Positions 36,001-48,000 of a stretch of DNA of 64,000 nt are shown piece after piece; position 1 is the stretch's first letter, and every line of letters starts with the position of its first letter. Origin of the DNA: Elusimicrobiota bacterium (GTDB taxonomy: Bacteria; Elusimicrobiota; Elusimicrobia; UBA1565); assembly GCA_043819795.1 (NCBI GenBank), contig JBDREN010000218.1, forward strand, positions 1-64,000. The letters are read 5' to 3'. Position numbers: made by a program.

Positions 36001-39000
36001 GGAGAGCTCGCCAGCGACCTCGTGGCCCTGGTCTCGGTCCGCGCCTACTCCAGCCCGGCGGGGGCCACCCCCGCGGGCTTCATCCCTTCGGAGACCGGGC
36101 GGCCTCTTGTCGTGTACCGCATCGACACCACCCCGCCCGCGGCTCCCGCCGGGATCGCGCCCCAGGTGCCGCCGGGCGCGGGGGCCGGGGAGAGCTTCGT
36201 GGTTACGTGGTCGCCGGCCGAGGACAAGCAGTCGGGCCTCATGGGCTACGAGGTCCAGGAGCGCTCCGACACCGACCCGGTATGGAAGACGCTCGGCATG
36301 ATCCCCGCGGTCAAGGTCGGCGGGGTGGTCAACAACAGCTACCACGTCGGCAACGCCTCGAGCATCCCGTGGGAGAAGAGGCGCGAGAGCGGGCAGTTCC
36401 TGAGCTACCGCGTGCGCGCCTACAACCACGCGGGCCTCCCGTCGTCGTGGTCGAGCCCGTCGGAGTCCGTCCCCACGGCCCTGTCGAACGTCGTGATCTC
36501 CAACGTGTCGAACTACCCGAACCCGTTCGACAGCCGGAAGGGAGGCCCGGAGGGACGGACCGTCATCACCTACACGCTGGGCGCGTCCGCCGACGTTGAG
36601 ATCGTGATCTACGACCCGCTCGGCTACGTGGTCCGGAGCTTCGATTTCGGCCCGGAGACCGAGGGCGGCAAGGCCGGCCCGAACTACGTGACCTGGGACG
36701 GGAGGAACGGGATGGGCCGGTACGTGTCGAAGGGCGGATACATCGCCAGGATCAAGGTGGGGTCCACGCTCGGCACGGCCACCATCATCCGCAAGATCGG
36801 CGTGATCCATTAGTTAGCGCCGCGGGGCGAGCTTGCGGCGCTGAAAACGGCAAAAGCCAACGGCACGCTTGCGATGGGGTTCCCAATGACTAAGAGGTGT
36901 AGGCGCCGCAGGGCAAGCCTGCGGCGTCGGCATGTCAGCATCCCTGACGGGAATCCTTACCTTCCGCTCGTCGGGGAAAGCCGAGGCGCGTAACAAGTTT
37001 GTCGTCGCGCTCAAAAAAACGCATACAAGGGCGTAATAATTTACTCTTGACAAGTCAAGGTTTCCGGGTATACTAATATTGTAGGATTCCCGACGAGACT
37101 TTGGGCGCGTTCGAAGTGCGGGCTGAGCGTGCCGGTGATCGGTCCCGGACGGGCGATAAAGGCAAACCCGGTGCAAGCCGGGGGCGCAAAGCCATGAACC
37201 CCGCGTGAGCGGGGAAGTCAGGCTACCGAACATAATGGCCCAAGACGCTGTAGGGGGGTTCGCCCCCGAGTCGAGGATGCGGCCCATGGCAGCGCGCGTG
37301 CGCGCGGCGATGGGTCTTTTTGCGCTCTCGGCCCTGCTCGTCCCCGCTCCCGAGGTCCTGGCCGGACAGTCCGGCGGCCAGCCGGGGGCGTTCCTGCAGT
37401 TCGGCGTCGGCGCCCGGGCCCTCGGGATGGGCGGCGCCTTCTACGCGATCGCGGACGACGCGACCGCGGCCTACTGGAACCCCGCCGGCCTCGCCTACCT
37501 GCAGCGCAAGGAGATCACCACGATGCAGGCGGCCCTCTTCGAGGACACGCAGTACACCTACATCGGCTACGCCCATCCGACCGCCACGAAGGGGACCTTC
37601 GCTTTGGGCGTCACCCAGCTCGCCTCGGACGGCTTCGAGAAAGTGGACGCCGTATTCGACCCGAGCACCGGACAGCCCACGAGCATCACCCAGAGCGGGA
37701 CGTTCTCCGACGAGAAGCGGGCCATCGCGCTGTCCTGGGGCCGCGAGGCGACGGAGACGATGTCCTTCGGGCTCTCGGCGAAGCAGGTCACCCGCAAGCT
37801 GGACTACTCCTCCGACAGCCACATGGCGCTCGACATCGCGGCGATGCGCGCCATGGGACCGTACTACCGGCTGGCGCTCGGCATCCAGAACGTATTCAGC
37901 AGGAGCTCGGGCGACACCGACGACACCTTCCCGGTGATCGTGAAGATAGGCAACGGCCTGAGGATGTTCAACGAGCGGCTGGCGCTCGGGTTCGACTTGC
38001 AGAAGGCCCAGGACGCCGACATCAACTGGCGCTTCGGCGGCGAGTACTGGGCGGCCCGCTGGTTCGCCTTCCGCTTCGGGATCCTGGCGGCCCCCCAGAT
38101 CCAGGAGACGGACTTCGGGTTCGGCTTCCGCTTCCGCCGCGTGCAGTTCGACATCGCGCAGGGCATCCACGCCCTCGGCTCCAGCACGCGTTTCTCGGTG
38201 GCCTTCCGCTTCGGCCGCTCGCGCACGGACCGGTCGGCCGACAAGACCAAGCTGCTCATCCAGCAGGGCTTCGAGGCGTTCCGCGAGGGCGACTTCCAGC
38301 TCGCGACGCTGCGTCTCAACCAGGCCCTGGACGCGGCGCCGCACAACAAGCAGGTCAGGGCCATGCTGGCGCGCCTGCAGGCTGTGGTCGACTTGGTGCC
38401 GCAGGCGACCGGCGGCGAGGAGTTCCAGACCTACGTGCGCAAGGGCGTGATCGCCTACGTCGACGGCCGTGACCTGAGGGGCTCGGTCAACGCGCTGCGC
38501 CACGCCCACAACAAGAACCCGAAGGACGACAAGCTGCTCTCGCTCTTGAACATCGTCGAGAAGGAGGGGGGCGTCGGCGAGCTCACGCGCCGCGGCGAGG
38601 GCCCGGAGATCTTCACGTTCATCGACCAGAAGCTCTACGACGCCCGCCAGGCTATCTACGACGGCAAGCTGGACCTCGCGATCCGCCGGTCGCAGGACGT
38701 GCTGGATCTCGAGCCCGTCAACGTCGTCGCTCTCGAGATCATGGGCTCGGCGTTCTACCTGATGGAGGAGAAAGAGAAGGCGAAGGCGGTCTGGAAGCGG
38801 GTCCTGGAGGTCGATCCGGAGAACGCGGTCGTCGCTGAGTTCGTCAAGCAGATCCAGTAAGCCTTCCGACGCCGAGCCCGAGGGCGGTCGTCCCGGGAGT
38901 CCCGTTTTTCGCCGTCATTAAAAATGTAACAACAATATATACACTTATAGGTAAGGATCCGGCCGGCGTCGCGTCCGGACCCACTCTATGCGCTATAGGC

Positions 39001-45000: not shown

Positions 45001-48000
45001 ACTACGCGTCGAACTGGGAGCTTTCCACCGCGCGCGCGACGGCGGTCGTGGAGCACATGATCCGGGATAACGGCCTCCCCGCCGGCTGCATGGCGGCCAT
45101 CGGCTACGGGAAGCACCGTCCGATCGCTCCCAACGACACGCTCGCCAACCGGGCGCGCAACCGCCGGGTGGTCTTTTTCGTGAAGAACCCGCCGATGAGC
45201 AAGGGCGAGAGCTGCAGGAATCTCTCCGCGCCGGCGGCCGGTCCGCCGCGGAAGACGCCGGAAGAGGGGAAATGAAGAACCAGTCACGAGCCGCGTGCGC
45301 CGTCGCGGCGGCCGCGCTGCTCATGAGCGGCTGCGCCATGAAGTTCGGCCGCGGCCAGACGAAGGTGGTCCTCCGGGACTTCGCCGAGGGCCGGGTCGTG
45401 CAGGTGGCCATCACGGACCGCCTCACCGGGACGAAGGAGATGCTCTTCATCTCGATGCCGAAGACGTCTTTGTTCCTCGAAGGGTACATCCAGGGCATCG
45501 TGACCGACTACGAAGACAACCCCATCCAGGGGGTCGTGGTCCGCGCCCTGGCCAAGGGCGAGGCCAAGCTCGTCGCCAAGGGCGAGGCCGCCTTCCAGAC
45601 CTCCTCCTTCGACGCCGGCGTGAGCGACTCGAACGGGATCTACCGCATCCGCTTCAGCCTGCCGGTCGTCAAGGAGCGGGTGGACGTCCGCGGCACGCTC
45701 CGCTACAATCCCGGCTGGGAGCAGGAGCTGCAGAACCTCGGCAAGGCCTACAGGCCGCAGACGGACGAGTCCCCGTTCTGGCTCTTCTTCGACATGAAGG
45801 AGGGGATGCTGGTCTTCGCCGAGGGGGTCCGCAAGGTGGTCGTCCAGCCCGTCGAGACCGGGAAGCGCGCCCCGGGCCGCGCCCTGCCCGGAGCCAAGCC
45901 TCCGGCCCCCACGACGCCCGCGGCGGCGGAGAAGCCCTCCGAGGACCTCTTCGAAGGCTTCGGCTTCGGCAATCCCTGAAGCTCCCCGACGGCATCTGCC
46001 GGGCGCGGGGGGATGCCCGCGGCGCAGGCCGCCAACGCCGCACTGAAGGGCGCCCGGCTCGGCGCCCCTGCCGGGGTCGACGCCGCGCCGGTCATCGGCC
46101 TCGCGCGAGTCCCCGGAAGAATTGATACAATCGGGTCGTAGTGGAGATGGCATGAGGAGAGCTTTTTGCGTCTTCATCGGGGCGTCGCTGATCGGCTGCG
46201 CCGTCGCGACCCGGGAGGACCGCATCACGCGGGACATGTCCGACGAAGTGGCCCGTTCGGAGCGCGGGGCCTTCGAGAGCCATACCCGCGCGCGTCTGGC
46301 GGCGCTCGAGCGCAGCCTCAACGACTTCATCCGGGCCGAGGGCCGCATCCCGGCGAGTCTCGACGAGCTCGTGCCGCAGTATCTGGCCGAGATCCCGGAG
46401 GTCGAGCTCGGCGTCGCCGGGCATAAGGATACGAGCGCCGTCGTCTATTATGACCAGGATGTGATCAGCGACGGCCAGGTGAACGGGGCGCTGCTGCGGG
46501 ATTCCGGCGGGTGGGGTTACGTGTTCAGCGACAGGCAGGTCGTCGTCTTCATCGACTGCACGCACAAGCGGATGGACGGAGAGTTCTGGTACAAGGCGCG
46601 CGGTGTCTACTAGAAGTCATCCCAAGACCTCCCTTCACGTCCTCCTCGTCTGCGGCGGGAAGTCCGCGGAGCGGGAGGTTTCGCTCGCGTCCGCCTCCGC
46701 CATCCTAAGAAACCTGGATCCCCGCAAATACTCGGTCACGGCGGCCGTCATCGGCCCCTCGGGCCGGTGGACGCTGCCGCAGGATCCGCGCCGGGCCGGC
46801 CTCGACTGGGACTACCCGCGAGGGAGGGGGCGCCGGCGGGTGCTCGCGATAGACCCGGCGCGCGGGTTCTCCTTCTCCCTGCGCGGGAGGTCCGGCGGAG
46901 GGCGCGCGCCGGACGTGGTATTCCCCGTCCTGCACGGTCCCAACGGCGAGGACGGGACGATCCAGGGGATGCTGGAGTTCGCGGGGCTCCCGTACGTCGG
47001 ATGCGGGGTGCTGAGTTCCGCTCTGGGGATGGACAAGGAGTATCCCAAGCGCCTCGCGGCCCAGGAGGGAGTCGACGTCCTGCCCTACGCGGTGCTGCCT
47101 TCTCCCCGGGCCCTGCGGGAGCGCCGCGGGTGGGCCCGGCGGGTCTCTCGCCTGGGACTGCCGCTGTTCGTCAAGCCCGCGCGCCTGGGCTCGTCGGTCG
47201 GCATCAGCAAGGTCTGCCGCCGCTCGGGCCTGGACGAGGCGCTGCGCCTGGCCTTCCGCTTCGACACCAAGGTGATCGTCGAGGCCGGGATCGACGCGCG
47301 GGAGATCGAGGTGGCCGTGCTGGGCGACACGGTCCGCGCCGAGGCCTCCGGGTGCGGGGAGATCCGCCCCCGGGCGGGCTTCTATGACTATGAGGCCAAG
47401 TACGTCGATCCCGACGGAGCGGAGCTCCTCATCCCCGCCCCCCTGGACCGGCGGACAGCGCGGAAGGCGCGCGCGTGGGCCGTCCGCATGTTCCAGGCCG
47501 TGGACGGATACGGCATGGCGCGCGTCGACTTCCTCGTGGACAAGCGCAGCGGGCGGCTGTACTTCAACGAGGTGAACACCATCCCGGGCTTCACGACGAT
47601 CAGCCTGTTCCCGCGCCTGTGGGGAGCCGCCGGCCTTCCCTTCGGGAAGCTTCTGGACCGCCTCATCGCCCTTGCGCTCGAGCGCCAAAAGGCGCGCTCC
47701 CGCGTGAGGACCCGCCTCTGATGGGACGCGGACGCTTCTATCTGCTCGCGGCCGTGATCCTCGGAAGCGTCCTCTTCGCGGGCTGGGGCACGCGCGGGTT
47801 CCTCACGGGCCTTCCCTCCTACGACCGTTTCGAGGAGTACCAGCCCTCTCTGAGCACTCGCGTCTACGACGTCCGCGGGGAGGTGATCGCCGAGCTCTCC
47901 ATCGAGAAGCGGGCGCTCCTGACCCTCGCGCACATCCCCGTGGACCTGCAGAACGCCGTCCTCGCGATCGAGGACTCCCGGTTCTTCGACCACTGGGGCG

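Follow-up and report, generated by a model that had tools for sequence, protein, structure and literature searches.

Related machines

Several described machines share parts with the locus analysed here, which lies in a window of 64,000 nucleotides (contig JBDREN010000218.1, assembly GCA_043819795.1) from a bacterium of the phylum Elusimicrobiota. With the flagellar motor it has in common the RBM3/beta-collar of FliF, the middle (M) and C-terminal (C) domains of FliG, a flagellar-type MotA, a plugged, wall-binding MotB and SwrD beside motA. It differs in that FliF and FliG form one chain, from which RBM1, RBM2, the FliF C tail and the FliG N domain are gone, in the loss of FliM/FliN, export gate, rod, hook and filament as well as FliG residue R281, and in its TPR tail and several paralogues per genome. 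Rotor ring and FliG are also joined in a Salmonella deletion fusion, which lacks the FliG N domain and FliF C tail and reportedly still swims (PMC6445934), and in the fusion of PDB entry 8z4d; unlike the rotor here, both are laboratory proteins that keep RBM1/2 and work in a complete flagellum together with FliM and FliN. An RBM3-type ring domain outside the flagellum is found in SpoIIIAG of the sporulation channel, which has neither FliG nor stator and belongs to another envelope context. Another repurposed flagellar sub-machine retains the export apparatus but no motor, the reverse of the case here, where the motor was kept and the export apparatus lost.

The T9SS and gliding machinery of the Bacteroidota resembles the locus in its PorV-like carriers, giant adhesin beside its own carrier and 5:2 ion motor proposed to move the adhesin, and probably in its SprA-like translocon and its cargo with a C-terminal domain (CTD). 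Gliding there relies on GldLM and an outer-membrane hub, whereas here MotAB would act on an inner-membrane ring and the carrier has a periplasmic TPR. The Agl-Glt machine of Myxococcus likewise combines a proton motor, TPR proteins, outer-membrane barrels, an adhesin and a long coiled coil, AglZ; its AglRQS is TolQR-like and without a FliF/FliG ring, in contrast to the MotAB-like stator here. In free-living members of the same phylum, orphan motAB, flbD and fliG, genes of the same names as here, were noted and gliding or twitching was suggested (2022 preprint, bioRxiv 2022.07.08.499144). The part of that preprint used here gives orphan genes, without FliF fusion, operon, PorV, SprA, adhesin or riboswitch.

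The rotor fusion

Features given below with coordinates lie on the + strand unless stated otherwise. The gene at 38988..40970 encodes a rotor fusion of 660 aa. A signal peptide is followed by the RBM3/beta-collar of FliF, a membrane helix, the M and C domains of FliG and a TPR tail, a layout that, apart from the signal peptide, was proposed in the initial annotation and is borne out by Pfam, profile and AlphaFold2 results. The Pfam scores were 23.7 bits for YscJ_FliF_C (cut-off 23.8, residues 50-189), 39.1 for FliG_M and 84.3 for FliG_C, besides matches to TPR families. The periplasmic RBM3/beta-collar (residues 28-196; 39069..39575) lacks RBM1 and RBM2 by profile and model. Its earlier identification as FliF was supported by two further routes: a profile of 33 periplasmic domains retrieves FliF from the PDB (E 2.9e-8) as well as SpoIIIAG (E 2.4e-6), and a full-length AlphaFold2 model (pLDDT 78.3; long strands 59-76 and 141-160) gives structure matches to FliG at ranks 1-13 and, with E about 2e-3, to RBM3 chains of FliF. 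At the collar tip lies a Pro108-Gly109 motif (39309..39314), with P108 invariant in 43 aligned rotors; the PG motif occurs in 89/89 long matches (shuffle mean 7.3) and in 48/48 rotors found via FliG patterns. A single membrane helix is predicted by hydropathy at residues 212-230 (39621..39677; model helix 210-246), followed by the FliG M and C domains (residues 303-517; 39894..40538), which match 1LKV at E 3.9e-32 and keep the GG linker and FEDI motif. The FliG N domain and FliF C tail are missing, and a weak FliG_N match falls on the M domain. The cytoplasmic TPR tail (residues 575-659; 40710..40964) scores 47.5 bits with Pfam TPR_2.

Stator and cytoplasmic neighbours

All genes occupy the places in the conserved row that were originally assigned to them. 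Downstream of the rotor, 40987..43443 encodes a long cytoplasmic coiled-coil protein with a proline-rich head and without a Pfam family. Its open frame, 41110-43443, consists of 47% E/K/Q/R and has zero Pro over residues 85-715. While the presence of this gene was confirmed, its boundaries had to be corrected: this assembly has an in-frame TAG at 41095 and, judging from relatives that begin at the matching Met, the gene probably starts at ATG 40987. The end of the frame is overlapped by a genomic repeat of ∼170 bp with a terminal inverted repeat (43348..43518, no strand assigned), for which blastn gives 46 matches across the genome, its own copy among them. There follow a 75-aa FlbD/SwrD family protein (43526..43753; PF06289, 73.8 bits), a flagellar-type MotA (43760..44566; MotA_ExbB 89.2 bits; PDB MotA 6YSF/8UCS at E 4e-49) and MotB (44574..45275; MotB_plug 44.4 and OmpA 66.3 bits). 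A MotA near solved flagellar MotA and a MotB with membrane Asp33 (YADLM in translation), plug and OmpA domain identify the stator as flagellar-type. The row had been described as ending in two lipoproteins; the first (45272..45979; lipobox-like LLMSGC, weak CarboxypepD_reg match) belongs there, with orthologues in 8/40 loci and its place behind MotB kept in one class, but the second (46152..46613) is loosely linked, since its orthologues occur in 3/40 loci, two of which have other genes intervening.

FliG and MotA residues were numbered via alignments to 1LKV, PDB MotA and flagellar FliG. FliG R281 and D289 have been named as the residues of first importance in E. coli; in a Vibrio chimera, single R301A or D309A changes gave normal rotation, according to an excerpt of PMC6079164. 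For the R90-D289 charge pair, the MotA site is basic in 15/15 orthologues (Lys in the window) and the FliG site acidic in 20/33 (Ser in the window), while the neighbouring D288 site is Glu in 33/33, the window rotor included. For the E98-R281 pair, R281 is found in 0/43 aligned rotors (Gly in the window) and E98 is Glu in 8/15 orthologous MotA (Gln in the window). Joint loss of this second pair fails as an argument, because E98 varies among orthologues and three MotA from flagella of this phylum also have Gln there. The three threonines of the sodium-driven PomAB stator, T158, T185 and T186 (PMC10374538), are not all present in the window MotA, which has Thr, Ala and Ala; the T186 site is Ala in 14/15 orthologous MotA.

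Carrier, adhesin and riboswitches

Upstream of the rotor lies a gene for a PorV-like 14-strand outer-membrane barrel with a C-terminal TPR domain (37310..38860; start uncertain, 37235 to 37310). The frame 37205-38860 matches Pfam UPF0164 and TPR, and scores 110.9 bits with NCBIfam PorV_fam (cut-off 90). Its structure model (pLDDT 87.5) has 14 strands, then helices, and its top PDB matches are chain F of the T9SS entries 8gl6 (E 3.6e-15) and 6h3i (E 1.4e-13), so that family score and fold both place it among PorV-family carriers. This gene adjoins the rotor in 47/48 loci with room for a neighbour. In turn, a CTD gene adjoins it in 38/44 loci, and is small (about 120-270 codons) in 22 of these 38.

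In the window the CTD gene is that of a giant Ig-repeat surface protein (1..36813), whose open frame of 12,270 codons has Big_3_3/Big_13 repeats by family search and a 5' end beyond the contig. The contig start shares a 141-base overlap with a second contig (C176), which adds 2,171 open codons, and an orthologue in genome G078 is a single frame of 13,779 aa. The protein thus has at least 12,270 aa and probably more than 14,000 in full, in agreement with the size first given. The label "T9SS-type" for its secretion-signal-like CTD (36505..36810) stands on weaker ground, namely similarity to PorU (C-terminus, E 2.6e-5), because the type A CTD model TIGR04183 gave no match to the giant protein; on two small relatives it reached 19.6-20.6 bits, under its cut-off of 23. 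The CTD matches FlgD_ig (28.4 bits, cut-off 27) and a profile that we built from CTDs (E 2e-32).

A putative sigma-70-like promoter, TTGACA-16-TATACT (37047..37074), precedes the motor operon; as a pattern match it fits 11/12 positions, and sites of such quality number 3 versus 0.4 expected in shuffles. The c-di-GMP-I riboswitch aptamer predicted at 37151..37230 was recovered with RF01051 (70.7 bits, gathering score 35) and RF03167 (63.3 bits), upholding its previous assignment, and has a counterpart at the corresponding place in 14/14 relatives common to the two listings compared. Adhesin and motor are each headed by their own c-di-GMP-I riboswitch, and this holds even for G190, in which they lie at unlinked places.

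Absence of a flagellum and distribution of the rotor

The statement that this genome (completeness 90.3%) lacks flagellar export gate, rod, hook and filament was upheld by tblastn and Pfam searches with same-phylum controls. FHIPEP and FliMN_C were each absent from the genome and found in four controls, and same-phylum FliP, FliQ, FliR, FlhB and FlhA queries had zero tblastn matches, as had FliM/FliN. FliE, FlgB/C, FlgD, FlgE and FliD were likewise without tblastn matches here, while other flagellated loci were matched for most of them; flagellin also gave none, with a 137-aa piece as query and no control. Full FliF (RBM1-RBM2-RBM3) had no tblastn match, and the rotor contains only YscJ_FliF_C, FliG_M and FliG_C. 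With export gate, rod/hook/cap/filament, switch and full FliF/FliG all missing, a bacterial flagellum was rejected as the identity of the locus.

Among 301 genomes of the phylum, the rotor was matched in 110 and FlhA in 6. This genome has five such rotor genes rather than one, and intact rotor frames occur in about 30 families. Trees of the rotor and of the neighbouring MotA give the same three paralogous clades, T1, T2 and T3, and MotA numbers follow those of rotors and flagella: the single-contig genome G285 contains 2 rotors with 2 MotA next to them and lacks FlhA, a flagellum is accompanied by 2 rotors and 3 MotA in both G064 and G242, and G170 has 1 flagellar FliG and 1 MotA. Missing flagellar genes, one MotA per rotor or flagellum and matching clades substantiate the term "non-flagellar rotor-stator machine". 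A common history in one operon would also produce such co-divergence of FliG and MotA. A rotor match is present in 72/74 adhesin-positive genomes and, within the order, the adhesin occurs in 19/24 genomes with a T1 rotor versus 0/8 without. Rotor-stator genes are separate from carrier-adhesin genes in G285, G258 and G064. The earlier proposal of a motor-adhesin link gains from co-occurrence and shared c-di-GMP control, while the physical link is still inferred.

The genome encodes a SprA-like homologue of 1,838 aa (TIGR04189 at E 7.4e-42 and 142.8 bits, short of the 200 that its cut-off requires). A Pfam SprA_N search had zero matches; among Atlas neighbours of the protein, SprA_N occurs in 12-20% of members. 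GldL, GldM, GldN and PorU were not found in a search without positive control (GldL_N and GldN 0/101, GldM 0/1, Peptidase_C25 0/5, control genomes likewise zero). We counted 29 PorV-like frames in this genome.

Proposed machine and rival readings

From sequence comparison and structure models the parts, their predicted topology and the absence of a flagellum were established, as were joint inheritance and predicted joint regulation of rotor, stator, carrier and adhesin. We give about an even chance to a rotary motor, without a switch and driven by protons, that moves a giant adhesin anchored on its carrier, as in gliding. Rotor and stator very probably form a complex and this motor is likely coupled to carrier and adhesin; whether its output is motility is close to a coin toss. 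The fusion would assemble into a ring, as the FliF MS-ring does with about 34 subunits, held together by RBM3 on the outer face of the inner membrane and by stacked FliG domains on its inner face. Wall-anchored MotA5B2 units would drive the FliG ring round, always the same way because FliM and FliN are missing. Protons are the most likely fuel since two of the three sodium-site threonines are alanine. Collar-tip loops, which contact the rod in flagella (excerpt of 10.1101/2020.12.05.413195), would here grip a different partner in the periplasm, for which the TPR suspended from the PorV-like barrel is the most likely candidate. The adhesin may exit via the SprA-like translocon and stay CTD-bound to the barrel, much as Bacteroidota gliding adhesins ride on their own carrier barrels (excerpt of PMC10994853). 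Torque would then spin or drag the carrier-adhesin pair and so produce surface movement, with c-di-GMP setting the activity and coiled coils serving as scaffold. Against this count the lost R281 and the inconstant D289, the Ala at the T186 site of most orthologous MotA, the distance between rotor-stator and carrier-adhesin genes in G285, G258 and G064, the small CTD genes beside many barrels and the in-frame stop in the coiled-coil gene; a shaft would also have to cross the cell wall. T2 loci of G285 and G064 encode the TPR as a protein of its own that carries a wall-binding LysM domain, as would suit a fixed mount more than a shaft.

Instead of moving the cell, the motor might be a dedicated secretion engine that replaces GldLM and pulls the adhesin-carrier complex from the SprA-like translocon, with zero motility. 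We consider this unlikely. A SprA-like gene is found in 259/301 genomes, including two families (86/88 and 51/89 genomes) in which the rotor occurs in 1/88 and 1/89; the motor is therefore no general secretion energiser, which weakens the general form of a secretion role raised as an alternative in the initial annotation. Moreover, of the 15 CTD genes in this genome 13 are accompanied by a PorV-like gene of their own, only two such pairs lie beside a rotor, and many motor-linked CTD proteins are small. These points exclude a general role; a cargo-specific one stays. A surface or load sensor, in which the stator on a scarcely turning ring would inform kinases and c-di-GMP circuits of contact made by the adhesin, seems less probable again. 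It would suit the degenerate torque helix, a paralogue on C56 that continues in frame into a histidine kinase, a layout shared by six representatives of 809-847 aa, and the response regulators and GGDEF protein beside paralogous loci, but the T1 operon of the window has no signalling gene, its riboswitch makes it a target of c-di-GMP and not a source, and T1 keeps FlbD/SwrD, tied to torque under load in an excerpt of PMC13740483.

RBM3 as sole periplasmic ring domain, LysM on some TPR partners and long cytoplasmic coiled coils would also agree with a static, SpoIIIAG-like ring spanning the envelope as scaffold or channel between inner and outer membrane, with MotAB as Tol/Ton-like energiser and not as gear; this we regard as very unlikely, given fully kept FliG M and C domains, a flagellar-type MotA, a MotB with plug and wall-binding domain, and a stator retained by every rotor. 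Flagellar operons generally have an order resembling fliF-fliG ... flbD-motA-motB (as in G121), and the coiled-coil gene has an in-frame stop, as a flagellar-operon remnant in decay might. That reading is largely refuted by conservation and scarcely credible: frames are intact in many families, the three paralogous clades are old, residues are invariant, and the rotor coexists with complete flagella. That an uncultured bacterium without a flagellum keeps flagellar ring, gear and a probably proton-driven stator in one operon with the outer-membrane carrier of a giant surface protein suggests a so far undescribed engine that would move or handle adhesins at the cell surface.

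Identity of the rotor protein

The initial annotation had described a row of barrel, rotor, coiled-coil, FlbD, MotA, MotB and lipoprotein genes, with a FliF-FliG fusion as the rotor, and Pfam searches bore out both the positions and the families. The rotor gene (38988-40970, forward strand) encodes 660 amino acids: an N-terminus resembling a signal peptide, a periplasmic domain, a single membrane helix (residues 212-230), FliG_M and FliG_C domains above the Pfam cut-off, and a TPR tail. Since the YscJ_FliF_C score of the periplasmic domain is borderline (23.7 bits against a cut-off of 23.8), its kinship with FliF was tested separately. 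A profile built from 33 rotor periplasmic domains matched FliF at E 2.9e-8 and SpoIIIAG at E 2.4e-6 among PDB sequences, and the same RBM3 profile reached full flagellar FliF proteins among 1.84 billion representatives. FliG was also present in 89 of the 106 long matches to the profile in that collection, a set that excludes P0051, the window's best hit. An AlphaFold2 model of the rotor made with 43 sequences (pLDDT 78.3) has two long collar strands; FliG chains take ranks 1-13 among its structure matches, and FliF RBM3 chains appear at E about 2e-3. The FliG part aligns with T. maritima 1LKV at E 3.9e-32. Periplasmic profile, model and alignment thus agree with the fusion originally claimed. 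Long proteins containing FliG were also sought with a flagellar profile; one turned up among 7,999 candidates, which is weak evidence.

Absence of a flagellum and distribution of the rotor

FliF, FliG and MotAB together are an accepted mark of a flagellum. Profiles for FHIPEP and FliMN_C had no match in the window's genome, and both matched in four control genomes; Pfam-named flagellar-cluster proteins from three genomes of the same phylum found only MotA, MotB, FliG, ATPase and general regulators there. Because the genome is 90.3% complete we also consulted its relatives, among which FlhA occurs in 6 of 301 phylum genomes and in none of the 32 in the window's order. These results uphold the earlier statement that the flagellar export gate, rod, hook and filament are lacking.

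The rotor query matched 110 of the 301 genomes, three of them flagellated, where the weak match is probably ordinary FliG. Only 1 of 88 and 1 of 89 genomes were matched in two families of mostly small genomes, which are probably host-associated. The single-contig genome G285 lacks FlhA and has two rotors and two MotA genes, each MotA standing beside a rotor. In G064 and G242 a full flagellum is accompanied by two rotors and three MotA, and in G170 there is a single flagellar FliG with a single MotA.

Five rotor genes occur in the window's genome, with three MotA and four MotB genes beside them. Two trees, one of the FliG domain with 31 rows and one of the neighbouring MotA with 28, recovered the same three groups, T1 (to which the window's rotor belongs), T2 and T3. 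Clade support is strong in the MotA tree (100/99, 98/94 and 100/98) and weaker in the FliG tree (T1 68/79, T2 78/79); kin share labels in them, and with few outgroups and a midpoint root no donor, origin or order of events is derivable from either. The flagellar row nearest T1 MotA is the flagellar MotA of G121 (locus L111, G121:C9; 94/89). Among the forms seen in the window's genome are a T3 rotor with a histidine kinase fused in frame (contig C56:15135-17621, L001), a layout that recurs in six or more cluster representatives, 809-847 aa long, and a short RBM3-like fragment without FliG (C100:37469-37915, L006), which may be a sixth paralogue that is broken.

For 20 distant rotors, cluster look-ups returned few names, namely Elusimicrobiota, one Nitrospirota MAG and an archaeal MAG label attached to a 4.9-kb contig. 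ESM Atlas clusters with similar features come from Balneolota, Bdellovibrionota and Bacteroidota, and the candidate fusions listed there could extend the system beyond Elusimicrobiota. Records titled Clostridia or 'bacterium', a putative placement (L156, L161, L164, L165, L168 and L171), carry a row of PorV, rotor and coiled coil behind a gene with a C-terminal secretion-signal-like domain (CTD); it runs on through FlbD-MotAB in four of them, plus L168.

Stator, torque interface and collar tip

The window's MotA matches solved flagellar MotA at E 4e-49, and the rotor retains the GG linker and the FEDI motif. At the interface, the R90 site of MotA is basic in 15 of 15 orthologues and the D288 site of FliG is Glu in all 33 rotor orthologues. 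The D289 site is acidic in 20 of the 33 and Ser in the window's rotor; the E98 site is Gln in 7 of 15 orthologous MotA. R281 is missing from 43 of 43 rotors and retained in 7 of 7 flagellar FliG of the tree; G121 has a flagellar FliG that also lacks it. Joint loss of the R281/E98 charge pair was considered as an argument and rejected on sequence counts in FliG and MotA. E. coli needs the charge pairs that involve R281 and D289, yet according to passages of PMC6079164 a Vibrio chimera with R301A or D309A singly keeps normal speed. Excerpts from PMC11302681 describe a MotAB-FliG structure in which two MotA grip the torque helix between them, and part of PMC6445934 reports that a Salmonella mutant with an equal loss of the FliF C tail and the FliG N domain swims.

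Two of the three sodium-site threonines (sites from a section of PMC10374538) are Ala in the window's MotA, which makes protons the likelier driving ion. The change at the T186 site of MotA is a further departure. The FlbD/SwrD gene is kept ahead of motA in T1; a portion of PMC13740483 ties this protein to torque under load, its binding to MotA not being validated there. A crude sequence motif for MotB was present in 20 of 24 called genes.

In flagella, collar-top loops slot into the rod (part of 10.1101/2020.12.05.413195). A hydrophobic-Pro-Gly motif lies at the rotor's collar tip in 89 of 89 long matches, against a shuffle mean of 7.3 and with a selection profile that itself contains the motif, and in 48 of 48 rotors found via FliG patterns. 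It aligns with the PG motif in three of the five flagellar FliF alignments shown, from which we infer a counterpart of the rod-binding loop. Because the loop is invariant although the rod is absent, its conservation suggests another binding partner.

Carrier barrel, cargo and adhesin

The gene upstream of the rotor (37310-38860, forward strand, start uncertain) encodes a PorV-family protein, modelled as 14 strands followed by TPR helices, whose best match is chain F of two T9SS structures; as the number of strands is even, the TPR should lie in the periplasm. Inspection by eye of 40 loci of 20 kb placed a PorV-TPR gene immediately before the rotor in 34 of 39 readable loci (the gene caller misread L041, which was omitted, and part of L037). 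A GTDB scan, which probably overlaps this set in genomes, gave a full rotor in 49 of 55 loci; counted by script, a barrel or TPR adjoins the rotor in 47 of 48 loci with room, and a CTD gene precedes the barrel or TPR in 38 of 44 (22 small, 14 large, 2 cut). MotA follows within 10 kb downstream of the rotor in 13 of the 49, and 22 have at least 8 kb downstream without MotA, mostly filled by coiled-coil genes.

The window's genome has 29 PorV-like frames, and 13 of its 15 CTD frames lie no more than about 2 kb from a PorV-like gene, so cargo and carrier are paired. The operon's arrangement recurs on contig C56, which encodes a 6,602-aa CTD protein, PorV-TPR, kinase-fused rotor, coiled coil, MotA and MotB. 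The C-terminal 700 residues of the adhesin (1-36813, forward strand) find a match in 74 of 301 genomes, and the rotor query matches 72 of those 74; within the window's order, the adhesin occurs in 19 of 24 genomes with a T1 rotor and 0 of 8 without. Its open frames reach 19,358 aa. Modelled together as a complex, two copies of RBM3 and the TPR domain of PorV scored 0.21 against a mark of 0.32, which counts neither for nor against contact.

Several variants accompany these loci. Proteins of about 120-135 aa made of a signal peptide and CTD only are encoded immediately 5' of PorV-TPR (L052:5791, L055:5865 and some 20 other loci), sometimes alongside the giant protein, and are possibly a cap or adaptor. 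A second large-protein family in the window's genome has a different conserved tail, …GKFAV(V/I)R, missed by the CTD profile. At the T2 loci L108 (12906-14018) and L115 (7103-8191) the TPR forms a secreted protein of its own, with LysM, and one MotA is followed by two MotB genes. In many families (L052-L064, L106, L113, L114) the rotor or barrel is followed by a further cytoplasmic coiled coil, which is 1,550-2,100 aa long and has a rotor-like C-terminal TPR.

SprA-like secretion background

A single-copy SprA/Sov-like barrel of 1,838 aa ending in Phe (C134:13009-18525 in the window's genome, L190) matches TIGR04189 at E 7.4e-42, under its cut-off, and SprA_N is found in 12-20% of members of its Atlas neighbours. 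Pfam SprA_N is blank, but this NCBIfam match speaks against a missing SprA. The gene occurs in 259 of 301 Elusimicrobiota genomes, including 86 of 88 and 51 of 89 in the two families virtually without rotor. A system of SprA-like, PorV and CTD proteins is thus present almost throughout the phylum and can do without the rotor; the motor would be an addition that serves certain cargo. Searches without a positive control gave no GldL_N or GldN match among 101 genomes, no GldM in the 1 genome covered and no PorU-type peptidase in the 5 covered. A T9SS-like pathway in which GldLM was not found merits its own study.

c-di-GMP riboswitches and remaining operon features

Because a sigma-70-like promoter and a c-di-GMP-I riboswitch separate the adhesin and barrel genes, the motor operon is probably a transcription unit in its own right. 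Sites were counted with the Rfam model, a regular-expression scan having given only 2. In every one of the 14 relatives common to the two compared sets, the riboswitch lies 5' of the barrel orthologue, and T1 rotor and barrel orthologues are missing from the 4 of 33 genomes in which no c-di-GMP-I riboswitch occurs. In G078, G306 and G092 a second such riboswitch stands ahead of the adhesin gene, separated from it by a small gene; in G190 the adhesin, on another contig, has its own. Contig C101 of the window's genome has the riboswitch and small gene as in these genomes and is probably the adhesin's missing start. Elsewhere, a third riboswitch of this class heads a CsgG/FlgO-like protein in the window's genome (C106:628-1646), as in G092, G144 and G313; another heads FecR-like, cNMP-binding, 3,550-aa CTD and PorV genes (L182 and L184; G144, G092), and one lies just 5' of SprA in G152 and G190.

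The likely true start of the coiled-coil gene lies 36 codons ahead of an in-frame TAG (the stretch 40987-41097); in relatives the head is open and proline-rich. The TAG at 41095 may be an assembly error, a real stop or a restart, and contigs from two DNA runs, being short scattered pieces, gave no support regarding it. An approximately 170-bp repeat with a terminal inverted repeat (43348-43518) is MITE-like, with 46 blastn matches in the genome, many at contig ends. Genes for a D-Ala-D-Ala ligase and PBP1 lie 3' of the operon (46603-49970), also in several relatives, and may bear on passage through the wall or be there by chance.

Mechanism and alternatives

At the level of sequence, the parts, co-inheritance and co-regulation of rotor, stator, carrier and adhesin are established. 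Bacteroidota move adhesins on carrier barrels (part of PMC10994853), and by analogy we propose that a proton motor would turn one way, its rotor ring gripping the TPR of the barrel and moving the adhesin anchored there; we give this an even chance. Slightly short of that stands the broader proposal of a new class of motility machine, in which a rotor and stator without export apparatus would be geared, by way of a TPR-PorV carrier, to an Ig-repeat filament made of one chain of 12,000-19,000 residues, exported by a GldLM-less T9SS and spun or dragged so that the cell moves.

Against a ring that grips the TPR and moves the adhesin stand LysM on two of four separate TPR genes scanned, family f7, in which rotor-stator genes are unlinked to carrier-adhesin genes, the small size of many rotor-linked CTD proteins, and the stop in the coiled-coil gene of this assembly. 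The motor might instead be a cargo-specific secretion engine, which we consider unlikely yet worth weighing; that it is a surface sensor appears improbable, and that the ring is a static scaffold slightly more so. An operon that is only a remnant is scarcely credible.

The system would work like the flagellar motor but without export gate, axial parts or switch, and it borrows parts of the T9SS, although GldLM was not found here. On the broader proposal it would mirror the injectisome, keeping the motor and dropping the export apparatus.

Novelty and significance

Flagellum-less, free-living Elusimicrobiota were noted to carry many motAB, flbD and fliG homologues, their role being called unclear, in sections of 10.1101/2022.07.08.499144, whose main text, as far as covered, does not describe the fusion or the operon. 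Term searches of partial texts of PMC12505986, PMC13277936, PMC13740483, PMC13104615, PMC12204202, PMC11573180 and 10.1101/2023.11.21.568195 gave no description either, and none of the fusion, the operon or a T9SS in Elusimicrobiota was found in the literature searched, with most subscription papers outside its scope. We conclude that the system is real and new as a system; its function is one that we infer.

If our proposal is true, the phylum makes a second use of the flagellar motor with the export apparatus dropped, and one chain plus a stator would offer structural work a natural minimal rotor. A SprA/PorV/CTD secretion set outside Bacteroidota, in which GldLM was not found, makes its energy source a testable question. 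The same sections of 10.1101/2022.07.08.499144 leave open by what means free-living and magnetotactic Elusimicrobiota without a flagellum move, and to this the system offers an answer; it also offers a function for some huge Elusimicrobiota proteins, which two surveys list, in the parts covered, without a role.
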